From NCBI GenBank assembly GCA_947085655.1, contig CAMTXH010000007.1, positions 46,085-110,084 of the forward strand: a DNA stretch of 64,000 nucleotides, in the 5' to 3' direction. Positions 17,757 to 51,295 of this stretch are shown in pieces (position 1 is the stretch's first letter; each line of letters opens with the position of its first letter). Below the pieces are notes generated by a model. That model saw only the letters and a program-made list of their open reading frames with translations. It did no database searches and was not told where the DNA came from. A program made the translations under genes and the position numbers. This DNA is from an uncultured Omnitrophica bacterium. GTDB lineage: Bacteria; Omnitrophota; Gorgyraeia; JACQQV01.

Positions 17757-18665
17757 ATGGCTGTTAATCTCGAAGATGCGGCAATTCTCTATGAGGAAGC
17801 GACTGCACTCGTCAAGAAAGTATTCGACCAGGCAGGCCGGAATCAGCTGATTGACGGGAGGGAGATCAGTTCACTCGTCTGGCGGCTGGTTGAACATACG
17901 ACCCTGGGAGACCGGGGTCTTGTTTATTTTACGAACCGCGCAACCCCCCAGAATCTTCTCGTCTCCCAATCGGTCAATACCTGCATCCTTGCTTTGGTGA
18001 TCGGGATGGGCCTTCGATATGATACGGCAGAGCTCAACCAGTTAGGGGCCGCCGCGCTTTTACATAACATCGGAATGGTCCGACACCTTGAGACCATAGG
18101 ACTTCCGAGAAAACTCACCCCCCGCGAACTTGACGCAGTCCGCCAGCACCCTGTTGATGGAGAGGAGATTCTGAAAAAAGTCGGAGAGATTGAACCGGCC
18201 GTTCTTTTTGTTTGCCGGCACCAATACCGGAAAAGCTGGGAAGGGGTGACGGTTGCCCCCCACCAGACCCGATGGCAGGAGTACACCCAGATTGTGCGGC
18301 TGGTGGATATTTATGTGGCGATGACCCAGCCCCGTCCCTACCGGGAGCCCAAACTTTCGCATGAAGCGGTCCGCGAGCTGATCGGCGAATCTCACGATAT
18401 TTTTTCCACCCGTATCATGAAGACGTTGATTGACCAGATTGGAATTTATCCGATCGGCTCCTGGGTCCGTCTGAACACAGACGAAATCGCCCGTGTCGTG
18501 GAACCAAACCGGAATTTTCCCCTTCATCCGGTGGTAGAGGTTCTTTTTGACAATAGGGGGGAATCTGTCGACAGTCCCAAACAGTATAATCTTTACCAAC
18601 AGCGGATGATTTACATCAAGGAGCCGGTGGATTATCAGAAATTAAACCTCTTCGGTTCAAATTAA
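17757..18665 (+). CDS. HD-GYP-like domain protein with degenerate catalytic motifs (HD to HN, no GYP), probably non-catalytic
   Basis: HD-superfamily fold ('LAALLHNIGMVRH ... HPVDGEEIL ... RLVDIYVAMTQPRPYREP'). The metal-binding HD is HN (codon aac). The HHExxDGSGYP segment is replaced by 'HQYRKSWEGVTVAP'. Confidence 0.65.
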   Translation: MAVNLEDAAILYEEATALVKKVFDQAGRNQLIDGREISSLVWRLVEHTTLGDRGLVYFTNRATPQNLLVSQSVNTCILALVIGMGLRYDTAELNQLGAAALLHNIGMVRHLETIGLPRKLTPRELDAVRQHPVDGEEILKKVGEIEPAVLFVCRHQYRKSWEGVTVAPHQTRWQEYTQIVRLVDIYVAMTQPRPYREPKLSHEAVRELIGESHDIFSTRIMKTLIDQIGIYPIGSWVRLNTDEIARVVEPNRNFPLHPVVEVLFDNRGESVDSPKQYNLYQQRMIYIKEPVDYQKLNLFGSN

Positions 18666-44570: not shown

Positions 44571-46480
44571 AGATTCCCTTTGACGTTGTCTCCCTTTATC
44601 CGGGGGAGGTCTATTCGCGGGACGCTTTCTTGAGGCGTCTTACGCGTCTCGGCTACCTCCGGTGTGAGCGGGTTACGGAACTGGGGGACTTTGCGGTCCG
44701 CGGGGAGACGGTGGAGATTTATCCTGTTTCTTTTGAGGACCCGATTCAAATCCTCTTTGACGGGGATCGAATTGAATCGATCCGGAGCTTCCGCCTCTTG
44801 GACCATGAGATCCAGGAGCCCCACCCCTTTTTCATCCTCCTTCCTTTTCATAAAGAGCTTCCGAAGCCCCCCAAGCCCTTCCCGGCCGAGGCGTACCAGG
44901 CCGTCCCGCTGCAGGGTGCCGTGGACCTTGAAGAGGGGGATTATGCGGTCCATGTCGAGTACGGCATCGGCCGTTACAAGGGGCTTGAGAAACTGAAGAC
45001 CGATTCGGGACTCCGGGATCATCTGGTTCTGGAGTATGCGGAGGAGGACAAATTGTATGTCCCGTGCGAGCACCTCCATCTCATCCAGCGGTATGTCGGG
45101 CTCGGCGGCCGTGCCCCAAAACTCCACCGGCTCGGTTCCAAAGTCTGGAAAAAGACAAAAGAGATCTCCCAAAGGAACATCTACCGATATGCGGTTGAAC
45201 TTTTGGAAGTCCAGGCGAAGCGATCGAGCCGGAAGGGACATCCCTTTTCAAAGGACACGGACTGGCAGAAGGAGTTTGAAGAGGCCTTTCAATATGAGGA
45301 GACGCCGGATCAAGTCCGTTCCGCTGAAGAAGTGAAGGCGGATATGGAACGACCGAAGCCGATGGACCGGCTTTTGTGCGGAGATGTGGGATACGGTAAG
45401 ACGGAGGTGGCGCTTCGGGCAGCCTTTAAGGCGGTGATGGATGATAAACAGGTAGCGATGCTTGTCCCGACGACCATCCTGGCGGAGCAACATTTCAGGA
45501 CGTTCCTGGAGCGGGTATCGAAATATCCGGTGCAGGTGGAAATGCTTTCCCGGTTCCGCTCCAAAAGCGAGATTGGGGAGGCGTTGAAAGGGATCCGGGA
45601 GGGAGGGGTGGATATCGTAATCGGGACCCACATGCTTTTCTCGGATAAAATCCGATTTAAGGATTTGGGACTGGTCATCATCGACGAGGAGCAGCGGTTC
45701 GGTGTCCGGCATAAAGAGCGCTTGAAGCGCCTCCGGTATGAGGTGGATGTTCTGACGCTGACCGCCACGCCGATCCCGAGGACGCTCTATCTTTCCCTGA
45801 TGGGCGCCAGGGAGATGTCGATCATCAACACCCCGCCGGAGTCAAGGCGGCCGATTGAAACAGAGGTGACCGAGTTTGACGACGGTCTGATCCGGAAGGC
45901 GGCCCTTCTGGAACTCGAGCGAGGCGGCCAACTCTTTTTTGTGACGGACCGGATCAAGGGAATCGAGAAGATCCGAGATCACCTTTCGAAACTGATCCCC
46001 GAGGCGAGGATGGCGATCTGTCACGGCCAGATGCCGGAGCGGCACCTGGAGGAAGTGATGCATCAATTCATCACCCAGAAGATCGATTTTTTGATTTCAA
46101 CCAATATCATTGAATCCGGAATCGACATCCCGACCGCCAACACCCTCTTTGTCAACCACGCCCACCGGTTCGGACTGTCGGACCTCTACCAGCTCCGCGG
46201 CCGAATCGGGCGGTTTAAGGAAAAGGCATTTGCCTATTTTTTTGTTCCGAGAGGGTATCTCCCGACGGAAGAGGGGAAGAGGCGCCTTTCGGCCATCCAA
46301 AGGTTCGGCGCCCTCGGTTCCGGATTTAAAATCGCCATGCGCGACCTGGAGATTCGGGGAGCCGGGAACATCCTTGGGGTGGAGCAGCACGGCACCATCC
46401 AGGCAATCGGTTTTGATTTGTATTTGAGATTGCTTCGCGAGACGATTGCGCGGTTGGAACGGATGGAGTTTGAGGAATGA
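44504..46480 (+). CDS. mfd: Transcription-repair coupling factor Mfd, minimal form (D1b remnant/D3 + RID + translocase; no D1a/D2, no D7)
   Basis: CarD/TRCF RNAP-interacting domain ('GDYAVHVEYGIGRYKGL ... EYAEEDKLYVPCEHLHLIQRY'). SF2 translocase motifs ('LLCGDVGYGKTEVALRAA', 'DEEQRFG', 'QLRGRIGR', TRG-motif region). Only about 80 aa precede the RID. They match the end of domain 1b ('FAVRGETVEIYPVSFEDPIQILFDGDRIESIRSF'). The ORF is hemmed in by argS (stop 44570) and the SurA-like gene (start 46477), so the short ends are not an ORF-calling artefact. Confidence 0.8.
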   Translation: MRPKSDSSGTVAIGDYGTRQDVKIPFDVVSLYPGEVYSRDAFLRRLTRLGYLRCERVTELGDFAVRGETVEIYPVSFEDPIQILFDGDRIESIRSFRLLDHEIQEPHPFFILLPFHKELPKPPKPFPAEAYQAVPLQGAVDLEEGDYAVHVEYGIGRYKGLEKLKTDSGLRDHLVLEYAEEDKLYVPCEHLHLIQRYVGLGGRAPKLHRLGSKVWKKTKEISQRNIYRYAVELLEVQAKRSSRKGHPFSKDTDWQKEFEEAFQYEETPDQVRSAEEVKADMERPKPMDRLLCGDVGYGKTEVALRAAFKAVMDDKQVAMLVPTTILAEQHFRTFLERVSKYPVQVEMLSRFRSKSEIGEALKGIREGGVDIVIGTHMLFSDKIRFKDLGLVIIDEEQRFGVRHKERLKRLRYEVDVLTLTATPIPRTLYLSLMGAREMSIINTPPESRRPIETEVTEFDDGLIRKAALLELERGGQLFFVTDRIKGIEKIRDHLSKLIPEARMAICHGQMPERHLEEVMHQFITQKIDFLISTNIIESGIDIPTANTLFVNHAHRFGLSDLYQLRGRIGRFKEKAFAYFFVPRGYLPTEEGKRRLSAIQRFGALGSGFKIAMRDLEIRGAGNILGVEQHGTIQAIGFDLYLRLLRETIARLERMEFEE

Positions 46481-47397
46481 TTCGGAAAACCGGCCTGGTT
46501 TTGGCAGCACTTCTTTTTTGGGAGGGAGCGGCTTTCTCCCAGGAACCGGTTGCAAGGATCGTTGCGGTGGTGAATGACGAGGTCATCACCGAGCAGGAGC
46601 TTCAGGATGCGGTTCTGGAGGCGACCGGAAAAAAGGCAGAGGAGCCGTCTGTGCGGGAGTCGGCCCTCGACCGTTTGATCGAGCACAAACTGATTCTCCA
46701 GAAGGCGGCGGGACTCGGCATCTCCGTCACCCCCGAAGAGGTCCGGAAGGAAATCCAAAAGGTGAGGGAGAGTTTTCCCTCTGAGGAGGCGTTTCAACAG
46801 GCACTCGAAGATGCCCGCCTTACTTATGAAGCGTTTGAAAAGCGGTACGGAGAGCAACTTCTCATCCGGAAGATGGTCGGCCGTGAGGTCCAATCAAAGA
46901 TCCGTGTCTCGCCGGGTGAGATTGAGACGTTTTACCAAGAAAACCTGACTTTCTTTCAAGGACCGAAACTCTGGCGGATTGCCCATATCCTTATCCGAAG
47001 AGAAAAACCGGGTGAAGCGGATCCGGAAGCCAAGGCCCGTGCCGAGGAAATTTACAAGCGTCTTGAGGCGGGGGAGCCGTTTTCGGAACTTGCCAGGCAG
47101 TATTCGGAGGGGCCCCGAAAAGAAGAGGGGGGGGACCTTGGATACATTGAACCGGACAAACTGATGCCGGAGATTACAGAGGTCCTCCGGGATCTTCCGA
47201 TTGGAAGCGCTTCAAAAATGGTTGAAAGCCCGATTGGATACAACTTTTTCCAAATTCTGGAGCGGAAGCAAAACTACTCGATCCCGTTTAAGGAAGTCAA
47301 AAAAGAAATCGAGGCACGGCTCTACGAGGAAAAAACAAGAGCCGGTTATGCCGAGTGGGTTTCAAAACTGAAACAAAATGCCTATATCAAGAAATAA
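46477..47397 (+). CDS. SurA/PrsA-like periplasmic chaperone with parvulin (PpiC) PPIase domain
   Basis: Signal peptide 'MIRKTGLVLAALLFWEGAAFS'. SurA_N-like region ('VNDEVITEQELQ ... LIEHKLILQKA') followed by a parvulin domain ('IAHILIRREKPGEADPEAKARAEEIYKRLEAGEPFSELARQYSEGPRKEEGGDLGYIEP'). Confidence 0.75.
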   Translation: MIRKTGLVLAALLFWEGAAFSQEPVARIVAVVNDEVITEQELQDAVLEATGKKAEEPSVRESALDRLIEHKLILQKAAGLGISVTPEEVRKEIQKVRESFPSEEAFQQALEDARLTYEAFEKRYGEQLLIRKMVGREVQSKIRVSPGEIETFYQENLTFFQGPKLWRIAHILIRREKPGEADPEAKARAEEIYKRLEAGEPFSELARQYSEGPRKEEGGDLGYIEPDKLMPEITEVLRDLPIGSASKMVESPIGYNFFQILERKQNYSIPFKEVKKEIEARLYEEKTRAGYAEWVSKLKQNAYIKK

Positions 47398-48370
47398 CCC
47401 CACCGCCTACCTGACACTCGGGGATCCGGCCGGAATCGGTCCGGAGGTGGTTTTAAAGGCGCTGCAAAGTCCGCATCTTGGGTCCCTCCGGACCGTTGTC
47501 ATCGGCTCCGGGAATGTTTTAAGCCGGGTCGAGCGCCTCACCCGGTTTTCCATCCCCAAAAAGGCCCTTTTTGTCGACTTAAAGAATGTTCCGGAAAAGG
47601 GGTTCCGTTATGGAAAAGTTTCCGCTATCTATGGGATGGCGGCCTTTGAATTTATTAAGGAAGGGGTTCAGCGGGTGGGGAGGGATCCTTTCGGGTTTTT
47701 GGTCACTGCGCCGATTCATAAAGAGGCCCTTCAAAAAGCAGGACTCCCATGGCCCGGCCATACGGAGATGCTTCAGGATTTAACCGGTGCCAAAAGAATC
47801 AACATGATGTTTGTTGGGAAGCGGCTCCGGATTTCGCTGGTGACCTGGCACGTGTCGATCCGCTCTCTTCCGAATGCGCTGACCTCCTCGGGTGTTTGGG
47901 ATGCCCTCTTCTTGATGGAACAGGCCCTTCGCCGTTATTTTTCAATTCCGCGTCCGATGATAGGGCTTTGTGCTTTGAATCCGCATGCGGGGGAAGGGGG
48001 AATTTTCGGGGATGAAGAGAGGCGAATCCTCAAACCCGCTCTTCAACGTGCAAGACGGAAGGGGATCCGGGTGGAAGGACCCCTTCCATCGGATGATCTG
48101 TTCTACAGGGCGTATCACGGCCGGTATGACGGGGTGGTGGCCCTTTATCATGATCAGGGACTCATCCCCTTTAAAATGATTGAGCGGGAAGTCGGCGTGA
48201 ATGTTTCGCTCGGACTTCCGTTTGTCCGGACCTCTCCGGATCACGGAACCGCCTTTGATATTGCGGGAAAAGACCGGGCCGACCCCCGTTCCATGATCGA
48301 AGCGATCCGATTGGGAAGAGCGATGACGATGGCCGATTCTGGAAAACGACATGGACCTTGGAACTCTTAA
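47378..48370 (+). CDS. pdxA: 4-hydroxythreonine-4-phosphate dehydrogenase PdxA
   Basis: 'LTLGDPAGIGPEVVLKAL ... APIHKEAL ... GHTEML', a PdxA-family signature. Confidence 0.85.
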   Translation: MPISRNNPTAYLTLGDPAGIGPEVVLKALQSPHLGSLRTVVIGSGNVLSRVERLTRFSIPKKALFVDLKNVPEKGFRYGKVSAIYGMAAFEFIKEGVQRVGRDPFGFLVTAPIHKEALQKAGLPWPGHTEMLQDLTGAKRINMMFVGKRLRISLVTWHVSIRSLPNALTSSGVWDALFLMEQALRRYFSIPRPMIGLCALNPHAGEGGIFGDEERRILKPALQRARRKGIRVEGPLPSDDLFYRAYHGRYDGVVALYHDQGLIPFKMIEREVGVNVSLGLPFVRTSPDHGTAFDIAGKDRADPRSMIEAIRLGRAMTMADSGKRHGPWNS

Positions 48371-49190
48371 AGCACTTTTCCGGAAATATGATTTCCGGCC
48401 CAAGAAACGCTTGGGCCAAAATTTTTTGGTCTCCCGGTCAGTCGCCGAAAGAATATTGCAATGTTTCGGAGAAACGGAAGAGCCGGTTGTCGAAATCGGC
48501 GGCGGGTTTGGTGCGCTCACCGGACTTCTGGCAGAATCTTCTCCGTCTGTCTATGTCCTTGAACCGGACCCGGTTCTTTACGGGTATCTTTCGGAAAAGT
48601 TTCAAGGGAGGGAGGGCGTTTGGATCGAAAAGAAGGATATTCTTAAAACCTCCTTTAAAGAATATGCCGCTCCGAAGGCCCGCGTGATCGGCAATCTCCC
48701 GTACGCGATTACGAGCCCCATCCTGATCCATCTGGTCAACGAGCGGCGGTTTCTCGAAGAAGCGGTCGTGACGGTTCAGGAAGAAGTGGCGGAACGGCTG
48801 AAGGCGAAACCCAGAACCAAGGCCTACAGCCCCCTCAGTTGTCTTTTACAGTGTTTTGCCGAGATAACAGCCCTTTTCAAGATCCCGCCGGGCGCTTTTT
48901 ACCCCCGGTCGAAAGTCGATTCCCGTGTGGTCCGGATCCGTTTTCTCATCCGGCCGGCCGTCGCCCCCAGGGACCTTGATTTTATGTTCCAGGTCATCCG
49001 GGCCGGTTTTGGGAAGCGGCGTAAGCTCTTGGCCAATGCCCTCCAGGATTTAGGCCTTCCCAAGGAAAAGATCGTGGCCGGTCTGGAAGAGGCCGGTTTT
49101 TCTAAGGGGGTGCGAGCAGAGGAGTTAGAGCTTTCCGCTTTTGCCCGGCTCTCGGATCAATTTCAGACATTGACAAGGGGGAAAAAGTAG
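48351..49190 (+). CDS. rsmA: 16S rRNA (adenine1518/1519-N6)-dimethyltransferase RsmA/KsgA
   Basis: 'KRLGQNFLV', 'VVEIGGGFGALT', 'IGNLPYAITSPIL'. Confidence 0.9.
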   Translation: MDLGTLKALFRKYDFRPKKRLGQNFLVSRSVAERILQCFGETEEPVVEIGGGFGALTGLLAESSPSVYVLEPDPVLYGYLSEKFQGREGVWIEKKDILKTSFKEYAAPKARVIGNLPYAITSPILIHLVNERRFLEEAVVTVQEEVAERLKAKPRTKAYSPLSCLLQCFAEITALFKIPPGAFYPRSKVDSRVVRIRFLIRPAVAPRDLDFMFQVIRAGFGKRRKLLANALQDLGLPKEKIVAGLEEAGFSKGVRAEELELSAFARLSDQFQTLTRGKK

Positions 49191-49198
49191 TGTATACT
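49170..49198 (+). promoter_or_regulatory. Perfect sigma70 promoter overlapping the rsmA 3' end
   Basis: TTGACA, a 17-nt spacer, then TATACT. It drives the structured RNA downstream. Confidence 0.5.
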
Positions 49199-49204
49199 AT
49201 TGCG

Positions 49205-49473
49205 TAGTTTGAAGTTTTGACAATCGAATAAGACGAAAATCCAGGAAACTGGATTCCACACTCAGCAACGGGTGTGGGAGGCAAACCCGCCGAAAGGCGG
49301 GGACGCCTACTAGGGACTCCAAAGAAGACAAAAGGGTGCCCGGTAGGCCCAATCTGACAGAGGTCAGGTCGGGCAAAGCCGTGAACCTTCATCTCGAAGG
49401 GTAGTCGGGATAAGGTTGTCTGGTTGCCGAAGGAACGTTTTACCCCATCTTCTTTGGAGATGGGGTTTTTTGT
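49205..49473 (+). ncRNA. Structured RNA of about 270 nt, identity unresolved (stand-alone sRNA or riboswitch-like leader of the downstream secreted-protein gene)
   Basis: No ORF of 60 aa or more with domain support. Bounded by a consensus promoter and an intrinsic terminator (ccccatct / agatgggg plus T6 at about 49444-49472). Multiple short stems close GNRA-type or 4-nt loops (atccag-GAAA-ctggat, cccgcc-GAAA-ggcggg, ctgac-AGAG-gtcag, ccacac ... gtgtgg). Contains 'AGGUCAGGUCGGG', reminiscent of SRP-RNA domain IV, but lacks the paired GGAA-GGAAGCAGC consensus. Coordinates are uncertain by 1-2 nt. Confidence 0.4.
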
Positions 49474-49496
49474 TTGCGATAAGGACGGTGATTCCG

Positions 49497-50111
49497 ATGA
49501 AAAAAATTGGAATAGGACTTATCCTATTTTCCTTGATTCTGTTGAGCGGAAAAGGGGTCCAGGCCTTGATTATTCCCCAGATGACGATGGAAGAGATGGT
49601 GGCGCGGGCCAATACGATTGTGATCGGGACCGGGGAGCATTTTCATTTTCATCCCGATCCGGAAGGGAAAGCCCTCTATGCCTTTATCCGCTTCCGGGTG
49701 AAGGAATATCTGAAGAATGACCTCGGCGAAGAAGAGATTGTCATCATGCAGATTGCCCAGGAGAAGGGCGAAGACGGAAGTTATGATTCAGGGCCTTTTG
49801 CCCTGAAGATGGATGAAGAGGTGGTTCTTTTCCTCACCGAGGAAGACAACGAAGGATTCCGCCATGTCTTCGGGCTTTCCCAGGGAAAATTCTCCGTTGT
49901 GGAAGGCCGGCGCGGTGAAAAAAATCTTGTCCAAGAGATGAAGGGAATCCGGCTTTTCAACAAAGAGACGGGTGAGATTTCCGAAGCAAAGGATAAAATC
50001 CGGATTAAAATGACGTATGACGAATTCCGGAACTTTGTCCGGCGGACCGTCTCCACCATCGAGGCCCGGAAAAAAGCGCTGGCCGCCATCCCGCCGAATA
50101 CTTCTTATTGA
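49497..50111 (+). CDS. Secreted hypothetical protein (204 aa)
   Basis: ATG 24 nt after the terminator, with a signal peptide 'MKKIGIGLILFSLILLSGKGVQA'. No recognisable domain. Acidic and Lys-rich. Confidence 0.5.
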   Translation: MKKIGIGLILFSLILLSGKGVQALIIPQMTMEEMVARANTIVIGTGEHFHFHPDPEGKALYAFIRFRVKEYLKNDLGEEEIVIMQIAQEKGEDGSYDSGPFALKMDEEVVLFLTEEDNEGFRHVFGLSQGKFSVVEGRRGEKNLVQEMKGIRLFNKETGEISEAKDKIRIKMTYDEFRNFVRRTVSTIEARKKALAAIPPNTSY

Positions 50112-50177
50112 CAGAACGGGCGTCTTTTTTGTAAGATAATCCCTACGGAGCCGTAACCCTCAAACCGTGGGGGAAGG

Positions 50178-50747
50178 GTGAGCCATCACCCGGAAGAACT
50201 CGTCCGGCTCTGTCTCCGAAAAGATCCCGCCGCATGGCGGCAATTTGTCAGCCGCTACGCCCCGCTTGTCCACCACGCCATCCGACGCACCTTTAACCGG
50301 TACCAGTTTCCTTTTCAGACCGAAGACCTGGAGGATTGTCTCCAACAGGTCTTTTTTCATTTGTGGGAGAAGGGCCTGAAGCAGGCAAAAGGGATCCGAC
50401 AGCCGGAGGGGTGGTTAGTCATCGTGACCTATCGGGTCACCCTGGATTGGATGCGGAAAGAACGGGGAAGGAACCGGCTCATTTCTCTTGACACACTTCT
50501 CCCGGATCCGGCAAAGGACCCTCGTCTGGTGCTTGAGACATTTTCGGCTGAGACCTCCCTGGAAGAAGGAATGTCCACCCTTCCGGAAAGGGAAGCAGTT
50601 CTTCTCCGGTTGAATCTTGTCGAAGGGAGGACCCATGCGGAGATTGCAGAACTTCTCAGACTCCCTGCCGGGACCGTCTCCTATCTCATCAAGCAGGCAA
50701 AGGGAAAAGTAGCCCATTTCTTAAAGAAGCACCTGGGGGAAAAATAA
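50178..50747 (+). CDS. ECF (group IV) sigma-70 factor
   Basis: GTG start after 'GGGGGAAGG'. Region 2 ('FVSRYAPLVHHAIRRT ... EDLEDCLQQVFFHLWE') and region 4 HTH ('REAVLLRLNLVEGRTHAEIAELLRLPAGTVSYLIKQAKGKV'). Confidence 0.8.
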   Translation: MSHHPEELVRLCLRKDPAAWRQFVSRYAPLVHHAIRRTFNRYQFPFQTEDLEDCLQQVFFHLWEKGLKQAKGIRQPEGWLVIVTYRVTLDWMRKERGRNRLISLDTLLPDPAKDPRLVLETFSAETSLEEGMSTLPEREAVLLRLNLVEGRTHAEIAELLRLPAGTVSYLIKQAKGKVAHFLKKHLGEK

Positions 50748-50750
50748 AGT

Positions 50751-50790
50751 TCCAAGAATTTTCCGACATTTTACGTCATATATAGATAGG
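50751..50790 (+). promoter_or_regulatory. Promoter-like direct repeat, copy 1 (upstream of the anti-sigma gene)
   Basis: tCCAAGAATTTTCCGAcATTTTACGTCATaTATAgaTagG. Near-identical to copy 2 at 51351-51391. Contains an ECF-like '...AAT ... CGTC' pattern. Confidence 0.45.
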
Positions 50791-50797
50791 AAAGACG

Positions 50798-51295
50798 ATG
50801 AACAAACTGCCTGAAAAGACCCTCTCATGTCCCATAGAACGCTCACTTTGGGATTACCGATCTGGCTTCCTCTCAAAGCGGAGGGAGGATGGTATCCGCC
50901 GGCACCTTTTTCGCTGTCGGTTCTGTCTGGAGGCACTCTTGGTGACTGATGAGTCGCTACGAGGGATTGGGTTTGATCCGGAGGAGCCACCGTCCAAGGA
51001 CTCCTTGGAAAGGGTCGTCTCTTTTGCAAAGAGGGACCGTCCTTCAAAATCCCTGTTTCAAAAGTCTTTTTGGCTTTTTCTGTCCCTTTTTTCGATCGGA
51101 CTTTCATTCCTCTTTAGCCGCTTTTTCCTTCAATGGCTCATCCTCGGCCTTCTTTTCGGTCTGAAATGGGTCTTTGATACCGCAACGAACCGGACCCTCA
51201 TTGTCATGTACGATCACTTGATAAGGAGGAAAGAGTCAGACGATACCAGAGAAGTAGGGCGGGGTGAGAGATGTGAGGAGAAGGCGCCCCCGTAG
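50798..51295 (+). CDS. Anti-sigma factor, ZAS-type (zinc-binding) with a C-terminal TM segment
   Basis: '...RHLFRCRFCLEAL' (the HxxxCxxC ZAS motif) followed by a hydrophobic segment 'FWLFLSLFSIGLSFLFSRFFLQWLILGLLFGL'. Located directly downstream of the ECF sigma gene. Confidence 0.6.
   Translation: MNKLPEKTLSCPIERSLWDYRSGFLSKRREDGIRRHLFRCRFCLEALLVTDESLRGIGFDPEEPPSKDSLERVVSFAKRDRPSKSLFQKSFWLFLSLFSIGLSFLFSRFFLQWLILGLLFGLKWVFDTATNRTLIVMYDHLIRRKESDDTREVGRGERCEEKAPP

Follow-up and report, generated by a model that had tools for sequence, protein, structure and literature searches.

The GEMM-I riboswitches, the class I receptors of cyclic di-GMP (c-di-GMP), are recognized by two adjacent hairpins, a GNRA tetraloop with its receptor, and a near-invariant AAA linker (PMC1950547). 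This linker is present in all but 2 of 322 GEMM examples, and the second hairpin has a tetraloop receptor when the loop is GAAA (PMC1950547). The class is further characterized by the helix P1, by three nucleotides that contact the ligand (G20, A47 and C92) and by a C-G pair between helices that is universally conserved and corresponds to C44-G83 in the Vc2 RNA (PMC4744006). In Cd1, a GEMM-I OFF switch with a self-contained downstream terminator, the antiterminator is only kinetically stable (PMC9262584). The riboswitch class itself is already known and well understood; what is new here is an expanded junction of the GEMM-I aptamer. Our literature search found no paper on riboswitches in Omnitrophota.

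We have analysed a stretch of 64,000 nucleotides from an uncultured Omnitrophica bacterium, which we call the window, and in it the leader between rsmA (Pfam RrnaAD; 48351-49190) and the gene of a 204-aa secreted protein that begins with the ATG at 49497. The leader, its promoter, its terminator and the downstream gene are all encoded on the plus strand. We consider it likely that this is a GEMM-I-type leader that serves as a riboswitch for a cyclic dinucleotide, probably c-di-GMP, and that it controls the secreted-protein gene by transcription attenuation. Judged from its sequence, the leader RNA is best regarded as a divergent, peripheral member of the GEMM-I family rather than as a new RNA class, since there is a match to the c-di-GMP-I clan in the window and four relatives score above the gathering score of the canonical GEMM-I model.

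Family membership and conservation of the leader

The match in the window was obtained by cmscan with E-value reporting: positions 49271-49353 align with positions 1-80 of the 80 positions of RF03167 (c-di-GMP-I-GGC), a model of the c-di-GMP-I clan, with 31.2 bits and a local E-value of 1.8e-5. A second, weaker c-di-GMP-I match of 13 bits covers 49354-49432. In the scan of the whole 64 kb, the RF03167 match had an E-value of 0.0021 and was the only notable one below the thresholds; at gathering scores, no Rfam family was found anywhere in the window. These scores are 35 for RF01051 and 59 for RF03167. Elsewhere in the window, one snoRNA model was matched below threshold (18316-18383, 24.4 bits, E-value 0.3), which is almost certainly due to chance. 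ARAGORN detected no tRNA or tmRNA genes across the 64 kb.

Relatives of the leader were reached via the homologues of the downstream protein in genome and metagenome scans. There are 21 such homologues with 50-63% identity; one source label names Candidatus Omnitrophica, and both matches from genome collections are metagenome-assembled genomes of Candidatus Omnitrophota. The window itself was located in contig CAYJWX010000002.1 of the assembly GCA_964374045.1. Eleven distinct relatives with DNA upstream of the orthologous gene (L001, L003, L004, L005, L009, L010 and L012-L016) form, together with the window, the 12 loci compared in this study, all of them from genomes or metagenomes of Candidatus Omnitrophota. 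With RF01051, the leaders of L004 and L012 (40.9 bits each), L014 (39.3) and L015 (35.9) exceed the gathering score, and those of L001 (34.4), L009 (31.6), L003 (30.6) and L005 (29.2) fall below it. A pattern scan of viral contigs revealed no further family members. The original prediction had described the RNA as unidentified and possibly novel and had proposed a cmscan run: the clan match in the window and the four relatives above the gathering score speak against novelty, and the RNA is thus known in kind, even though the copy in the window does not itself pass a curated threshold.

In all 12 loci, promoter, leader and terminator are located directly 5' of the orthologous gene and in the same orientation. 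The upstream neighbour varies: it is rsmA in the window, L009, L012 and L013, and a peptidase gene or others elsewhere. This constant linkage to one gene, together with the GEMM-I-type aptamer, supports the option of a riboswitch or attenuator leader that had been considered from the beginning. Moreover, the block around the helix P3 is 89-95% identical between loci, whereas the coding sequences share only 61-70%, indicating that the leader RNA is under stronger constraint than its protein.

The leader is preceded by a sigma-70-type promoter (49170-49198) with the -35 region TTGACA at 49170-49175, a spacer of 17 nt and the -10 region TATACT at 49193-49198. This promoter had been predicted at the same place, and 11 of the 12 consensus positions agree in our promoter scan, which returned 5 promoter-like sites over 3 kb where 1.2 were expected. 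The relatives have the same promoter in front of their leaders, TTGACA...GTGTATACT. Transcription would start near 49205, giving a transcript of about 267 nt (about 49205-49471) with a folding energy of -113.7 kcal/mol, as compared to -81.9 +/- 4.8 kcal/mol for dinucleotide shuffles (z-score -6.6); none of 200 shuffles folded as well. The short G+C-rich stems that had been noticed in this region are real as well: GAAA loops cap the hairpins h1 (49240-49253) and P2 (49286-49301), and AGAG caps Pb.

No credible open reading frame had been seen in the leader, and we come to the same conclusion: on the plus strand, there is no more than one out-of-frame reading frame and an upstream extension of the downstream frame that begins with TTG and passes through the terminator. 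The leaders of the relatives carry indels that are not multiples of three and compensatory changes in the stems, so a coding frame is not conserved; we therefore discarded a coding or leader-peptide reading. Other RNA families can be set aside, too: in 49050-49600, no match to signal recognition particle (SRP) RNA, 6S RNA, tmRNA, RNase P, ydaO or c-di-GMP-II was found even at E-values up to 10, and no tmRNA was detected. The original prediction had drawn attention to a 10-mer shared with helix 8 of the SRP RNA. The 10-mer, AGGTCAGGTC, is indeed present at 49361-49370, yet it lies within the hairpin Pb, the sequence of which is different in every relative. Because it sits in a variable hairpin and no SRP match exists, we attribute this likeness to chance.

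Aptamer core and inserted helices

Splitting the 12 leaders at conserved anchors gave the following order of elements: a 5' block GUUUUGACAAC-UGAAUAAAGACGAAAA, the optional hairpins h1 and h2, the nucleotide at position 20, GCAAAC-P2(GAAA)-GACG, the helices Pa and Pb, CAAAGCC-P3-GGUUGUCUGGUUGCCGAA, a linker, and the terminator. The 5' block GUUUUGACAAUCGAAUAAGACGAAAA (49214-49239) is kept in all 12 loci and includes the proposed 5' strand of P1 (C49234-G49235) and the J1/2 segment AAAA (49236-49239). In the window, h1 (49240-49253, with its GAAA loop) and h2 (49255-49279) are inserted between J1/2 and the equivalent of G20, where canonical GEMM-I RNAs have nothing. This segment folds end to end into exactly two hairpins in six of the 12 loci including the window, with z-scores from -3.5 to -6.4. 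The G20 equivalent at 49280 is followed by P2 (49280-49305 in total): GC-AAAC, the stem CCCGCC/GGCGGG with the GAAA loop at 49292-49295, and then GACG. The loop is invariant, and in the comparison of the 12 loci each of the six stem pairs has changed on both sides. In the proposed covariation check on homologous leaders, P2 covaries, 94% of the cells of the helix alignment are paired, and neither any of 500 shuffles nor any slid control reaches the covariation score.

The second insertion separates P2 from P3. The helix Pa (49306-49347) has a P3-like lower half, a purine tract AAAGAAGA...GGGU (49321-49337) and the invariant sequence GGGUGCC (49334-49340). Pb (49348-49373) is a variable hairpin with its closing C-G pair directly before C46; a hairpin is present at this position in 12 of 12 loci, each time with a different sequence. 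Together, Pa and Pb form exactly two hairpins end to end in all loci, with a length of 27-69 nt (68 nt in the window). According to Pa, the leaders fall into two types: type 1 (the window, L003, L009, L010, L012, L013 and L016) has a long Pa with the P3-like lower half and the purine-rich loop, and in type 2 (L001, L004, L005, L014 and L015) Pa is reduced to GGC-AGGGU-GCC. L001 carries an additional hairpin inside the Pa loop. An RNAalifold analysis of five leaders recovered h1, h2, P2, Pa, P3 and the terminator, with 15 pairs kept through changes on both sides; compensatory changes were seen in h1 and h2 and, within Pa, at two pairs.

The Rfam alignments place the remainder of the core at 49374-49429. 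C46 is at 49374, followed by the AAA linker, which starts with A47 (49375); P3 occupies 49377-49425 with the G83 equivalent at 49418, and C92 is at 49427. P3 has a 7-nt loop with the sequence GGGUAG in it, and its internal loop is receptor-like. Seventeen pairs of P3 are paired in 90-98% of cases, and they are either invariant or changed on one side only. The 3' strand of P1, C49428-G49429, would pair with the 5' strand as C49234-G49429 and G49235-C49428. Only this P1 of two C-G pairs (49234-49235 with 49428-49429) can be drawn; it is invariant, and it has no consistent extension across the loci. By eye, a longer P1 between AAAGACG and the U-rich linker CGUUUUU is feasible for the window, L003, L009 and L013, whereas L004, L010, L012 and L014 do not allow it; we did not adopt it.

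In Vc2 numbering, the window thus has G20 at 49280, G21 and C22 at 49281-49282, the GAAA loop at 49292-49295, C44 and G45 at 49304 and 49305, and C46 and A47 at 49374 and 49375. When the inserts are deleted in silico, the junction reads GACG/CAAAGCC, in line with the consensus GACGCAAAGCC, and the insert-free core agrees with the highly conserved consensus positions of RF01051 at 30 of 36 positions in the window and at 27-31 of 36 across the 12 loci. The simplest interpretation treats Pa and Pb as insertions between G45 and C46. The extra hairpins enlarge the aptamer from about 90 to about 200 nt and give a junction of up to seven helices. Among the ligand contacts, A47 and C92 are invariant in 12 of 12 loci, and position 20 is a G in 10 of them including the window. 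No locus deviates from the bases of C44 (the C of GACG, 49304) and of the G83 equivalent (49418, the G that is bulged in GGU-UG-UCU), and a tertiary pair between them is predicted.

The leader shares several features with RF01051 and with Vc2 of Vibrio cholerae: the P2 frame GCAAAC...GACG with its GAAA loop, the AAA linker, the bulged G and receptor-like loop of P3, the set of G20, A47, C92 and C44-G83, a short putative P1, and a position in the 5' untranslated region of a gene for a secreted or envelope protein. In contrast to those RNAs, it has two helices between G45 and C46 in all loci and two more before G20 in half of them, a deviating receptor, a P3 with a nearly frozen sequence, the extra 5' block UUGACAAC, and the invariant GGGUGCC. 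RF03167 is the best Rfam model for the window, and the P2 sequence GGCAAACCCGCCGAAAGGCGGGGACGC is essentially the consensus of that model. This variant is defined by a G in place of A47. Here, the A after C46 is invariant; moreover, the 31.2 bits are far below the 59 required, and the match takes the inserted Pa for P3. The GEMM-Ib riboswitches of Geobacter, which bind 3'3'-cyclic GMP-AMP (3'3'-cGAMP), share the scaffold with the leader, and L005 also resembles them by an A at position 20, whereas the window and nine other loci have a G.

One variation on the 5' part of the leader was observed in relatives only. A structured module of about 50 nt (UCCUUCGAC...GCUCAGGAUCAAUGGUAAGCGAGCGAAGCGAGUCGAACCA) is present in L001 (3625-3675), L004 (3737-3790) and L013 (706-760) and is absent from the window. 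It is inserted between GUUUUGA and UUGACAAC with UUGA on each side, and it occurs once per locus and in both subtypes. Both a leader domain that is present in some loci only and a small insertion element are conceivable.

Terminator, candidate antiterminator and competing readings

An intrinsic terminator is located at 49442-49471. Its stem, ACCCCAUCUUC-UUU-GGAGAUGGGGU (49442-49466), has 11 bp, a loop of 3 nt, and is followed by TTTTT; it is thus stronger than the 8-bp terminator of the original prediction. The hairpin has -17.2 kcal/mol in the window and -11.0 to -18.3 kcal/mol across the 12 loci, and the stem sequence is conserved in all of them. It lies 12 nt past the aptamer and about 24 nt before the ATG; the linker between aptamer and terminator is not conserved and measures about 7-19 nt in the different loci. 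The terminator hairpin is nearly a copy of the distal part of P3. In four relatives, one or two more conserved hairpins (e. g. AAUGAGCACGCAA...UUGCUGUGCGAAUUAAAUCCGCCGAAGCC...GGCGGAUUU) are found between the terminator and the start codon (L001, 3892-3990; L003, 3766-3860; L010, 2901-2990; L005, 3929-3990), whereas this gap is only 24 nt in the window.

As a candidate antiterminator, a purine tract in the region of P2 and Pa can form a duplex with the 5' strand and the loop of the terminator. In type 1 leaders, this tract is the Pa loop, and in the window 49320-49338 would pair with 49442-49455 (-11.8 kcal/mol). In type 2 leaders, P2 provides the tract with its GAAA loop and 3' strand (UGAAAGGGAA with UUUCCUUUCA), giving up to 10 contiguous pairs. 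Across the 12 loci, the pairing has -10.6 to -16.0 kcal/mol and z-scores of -0.7 to -3.5 relative to shuffles. If the transcripts are cut before the 3' strand of the terminator, the antiterminator is the minimum free energy fold in the window, L001 and L012, and it is close to it in L003 and L010. Moreover, when the partners were swapped between loci, those of the same type paired with -13.2 kcal/mol and those of different types with -10.6 kcal/mol, i. e. 2.6 kcal/mol better within a type. The terminator and its partner tract thus covary between the two subtypes.

These elements suggest the following mechanism. A cyclic dinucleotide, most likely c-di-GMP, would bind to the pocket formed by G20, A47 and C92, and binding would be coupled to the docking of the P2 GAAA loop onto P3. 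The bound aptamer would then set the efficiency of the terminator and thus the read-through into the gene. In the absence of the ligand, the 5' strand and loop of the terminator would pair with the purine tract of the aptamer, i. e. the Pa loop in type 1 and P2 in type 2; the ligand-locked aptamer would withhold this tract, so that the terminator forms and expression is turned off, as in Cd1. This OFF direction is weakly favoured, with about even chances of being correct, because the pairing uses aptamer sequence and would destroy P2 in type 2. As in Cd1 of Clostridioides difficile, there would be a GEMM-I aptamer, a terminator at some distance, and a transient antiterminator that uses aptamer sequence. 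The competing strand differs: in Cd1 it is the 3' part of the aptamer, and here the candidate is the Pa-loop tract or P2. A motif scan of the window found no genes for GGDEF, EAL or HD-GYP proteins, which is uninformative; the sole GGEEF is antisense to MoxR and DUF58 genes and spurious.

Two other pairings were considered and rejected. The 3' strand of P3 (GGGAUAAGGUU) may pair with the 5' strand of the terminator, as in an attenuator with alternating 1:2, 2:3 and 3:4 pairings, an appealing idea in view of the likeness of the terminator hairpin to distal P3. This duplex has only -5.7 kcal/mol and a z-score of +0.7 in the window (-8 to -11 kcal/mol elsewhere), and P3 stays folded in the truncated transcripts of 11 of the 12 loci, the alternative being preferred only in L010. 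The second pairing involves the 5' block: UUGACAAU (49217-49224) finds its complement in GGUUGUC on the 3' strand of P3 (49414-49420), and the duplex of UUGACAAC (UUGACAAY) with GGUUGUC is the top predicted pairing of the leader with downstream sequence in most loci. As a switch it was discarded: the partner is invariant, L001, L003 and L005 have uncompensated mismatches, and there is no clear link to the terminator. The UUGACAAY block could act as an anti-aptamer strand. A role of UUGACAAC as the -35 region of a second promoter was dismissed as well, as there is no -10-like element at the right spacing.

Several observations weigh against a GEMM-I-type riboswitch with the mechanism outlined above. 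The copy in the window is below every Rfam gathering score, its best clan match being the 31.2 bits for RF03167. The AAA linker (49375-49377), although invariant and immediately 5' of P3, is parted from P2 by Pa and Pb, and in no locus does it join P2 and P3 directly. The internal loop of P3 reads CCUACA/UAAGG in the relatives and CCUUCA in the window; the 11-nt receptor motif is CCUAAG/UAUGG. The pairs G21-C46 and C22-G45 as well as P1 never vary, and the proposed junction topology is therefore without support from covariation. Concerning the antiterminator, its z-score in the window is only -1.3, with 31 of 300 shuffles being as good; there is no energy gain in five of the 12 loci, the terminator is thermodynamically dominant in every full-length fold, and the signal of the swap test comes from essentially one split into two clades. 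Finally, position 20 is a C in L001 (L001:3694) and an A in L005 (L005:3764), and the ligand may thus differ within the family. In GEMM-I RNAs, this position sets the preference for c-di-GMP or cGAMP, and the change from G20 to A is linked to a preference for 3'3'-cGAMP; L001 and L005 may accordingly have another specificity.

This variation is one reason to ask whether the GEMM-I fold has been re-purposed, either for 3'3'-cGAMP or another nucleotide, or for the binding of a protein by the extra helices without any small molecule. The four extra helices, the invariant GGGUGCC and the 5' UUGACAAC block, all of which are outside the canonical mechanism, would fit such a role, and so would the fact that, among the Rfam models, a variant rather than the canonical one scores best in the window. 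We nevertheless judge it improbable: the window and nine other loci have the canonical G20, A47 and C92 as well as C44, G83 and the GAAA loop, and the preference for RF03167 stems from the identity of the P2 sequence rather than from the change at position 47 that defines this variant. A related question is whether there are two pockets, i. e. a tandem pair of P2 with Pa and of Pb with P3 that binds one ligand each and acts as a switch that is cooperative or takes two inputs. In some lineages, GEMM elements commonly occur in tandem (PMC1950547). Rfam does see two adjacent halves (31.2 and 13 bits in the window, 32.7 and 31.6 in L009, 28.8 and 40.9 in L012), and the lower half of Pa is P3-like with GGG/CCC, a UG bulge and a CUAAAA-like loop. 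Type 1 leaders thus resemble the tandem GEMM-I riboswitches common in Deltaproteobacteria by the two adjacent partial matches and by a Pa that looks like a second P3, but they have a single set of pocket nucleotides: per leader, the GGCAAAC...GACG module, the AAA linker and the UGCCG tail each occur only once. An AAA linker is missing from the P2-Pa half, Pb is without any conserved motif in its loop or interior (only about 3-4 of the 12 loci have a GNRA loop), and in five loci Pa is a 3-bp stub, GGC-AGGGU-GCC, with all else kept. A functional tandem is therefore hard to believe. Since there is only one pocket set and one AAA linker left, and hardly anything of Pa survives in type 2, we assume one pocket, not two, although the sequences suggest that the leader family may descend from a fused tandem pair. 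It is tempting to speculate, if with considerable doubt, that Pa is a relic of such a fusion which carries the antiterminator strand within the aptamer, and that ligand-dependent docking of the P2 tetraloop to Pa or P3 gates the capture of the terminator by this strand.

The direction of the switch is a separate matter. With the same architecture and ligand, the leader might work as an ON switch: the terminator would be the default, and the bound aptamer would promote read-through, for example by a freed Pa purine loop that captures the 5' strand of the terminator. The dominance of the terminator, with nothing that competes strongly in ligand-free folds, is in agreement with this idea; moreover, the Pa loop in the subtype of the window is outside the canonical pocket, so that the pairing need not unfold the aptamer, and many GEMM-I riboswitches are known to be ON switches (PMC1950547). 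In the classical ON arrangement, however, the terminator overlaps the 3' strand of P3, and here it is a separate hairpin 12 nt downstream. The type 2 partner is the loop and 3' strand of P2, the use of which would destroy the aptamer and fits OFF, and opposite logic in two subtypes in front of the same gene would be unparsimonious. On balance, we regard ON control as rather unlikely. Least of all do we expect a stand-alone trans-acting small RNA, the other option of the original prediction, which would always end at 49471 and leave the downstream gene to be expressed independently. The RNA has its own strong promoter and a strong terminator that wins in all thermodynamic folds. Yet the gap between the terminator and the start codon is only 24 nt, and our promoter scan found no promoter-like site there; in addition, 12 loci share the link of the leader to one downstream gene although they differ in the upstream gene, and the leader belongs to a cis-regulatory aptamer class. 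A small RNA is thus very improbable, and a GEMM-I-type riboswitch that attenuates transcription of the gene is the reading that we prefer.

The putatively regulated gene and the meaning of the proposed expanded riboswitch

The gene controlled in our proposal (49497-50111) is preceded by the ribosome-binding site AAGGA at about 49481-49485. Neither Pfam nor NCBIfam has a family for its product, which carries a signal peptide and is predicted to fold into an NTR/TIMP-like beta-barrel with a helix at the C-terminal end. Downstream, a gene for an extracytoplasmic function (ECF) sigma factor (50178-50747) is followed by a putative anti-sigma gene and by SpoVG. An ECF sigma and anti-sigma gene pair is the usual neighbour of the secreted-protein gene. 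The neighbourhood of ECF sigma, anti-sigma and SpoVG genes recurs in L010 and L014, but not in L009, and for this reason we consider the riboswitch and the secreted protein as the conserved unit. A promoter-like site, TTGACA-18-TAAGAT (50108-50137), is located just inside the 3' end of the secreted-protein gene and upstream of the sigma and anti-sigma genes (50178-51295); the sigma operon may therefore be read both from the riboswitch promoter and independently.

On the other side of the leader, surA, pdxA and rsmA (ksgA) are adjacent and overlapping (46477-49190), and the same arrangement is found 5' of the riboswitch in L009. The gene order is that of the surA-pdxA-ksgA cluster of E. coli. 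A terminator-like G+C-rich inverted repeat with runs of T and A alongside (48393-48421, both strands) lies inside the 5' end of rsmA, just past the pdxA stop codon; it may be a chance match or an internal attenuator.

The curated Rfam thresholds miss this conserved c-di-GMP-type riboswitch of Omnitrophota, an uncultured phylum. Censuses of c-di-GMP receptors based on these thresholds will consequently under-count such RNAs. As the RNA is a member of a well-understood class, the value of the finding is incremental, and the expanded junction and the possible embedded antiterminator are most worth attention. If the speculation about Pa holds, this would be a GEMM-I riboswitch with a five- to seven-way junction and with the expression platform embedded in the aptamer, and the members with A or C at position 20 might differ in ligand specificity. 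Nature has, in effect, done an insertion experiment on these leaders: two hairpins at the foot of P2 and a further two beside G20 appear to be tolerated by the GEMM-I pocket, which is useful both for understanding and for engineering this widely used scaffold of biosensors. Biologically, the riboswitch would place a secreted protein, one with a predicted fold of the NTR/TIMP type, under the influence of second-messenger signalling.

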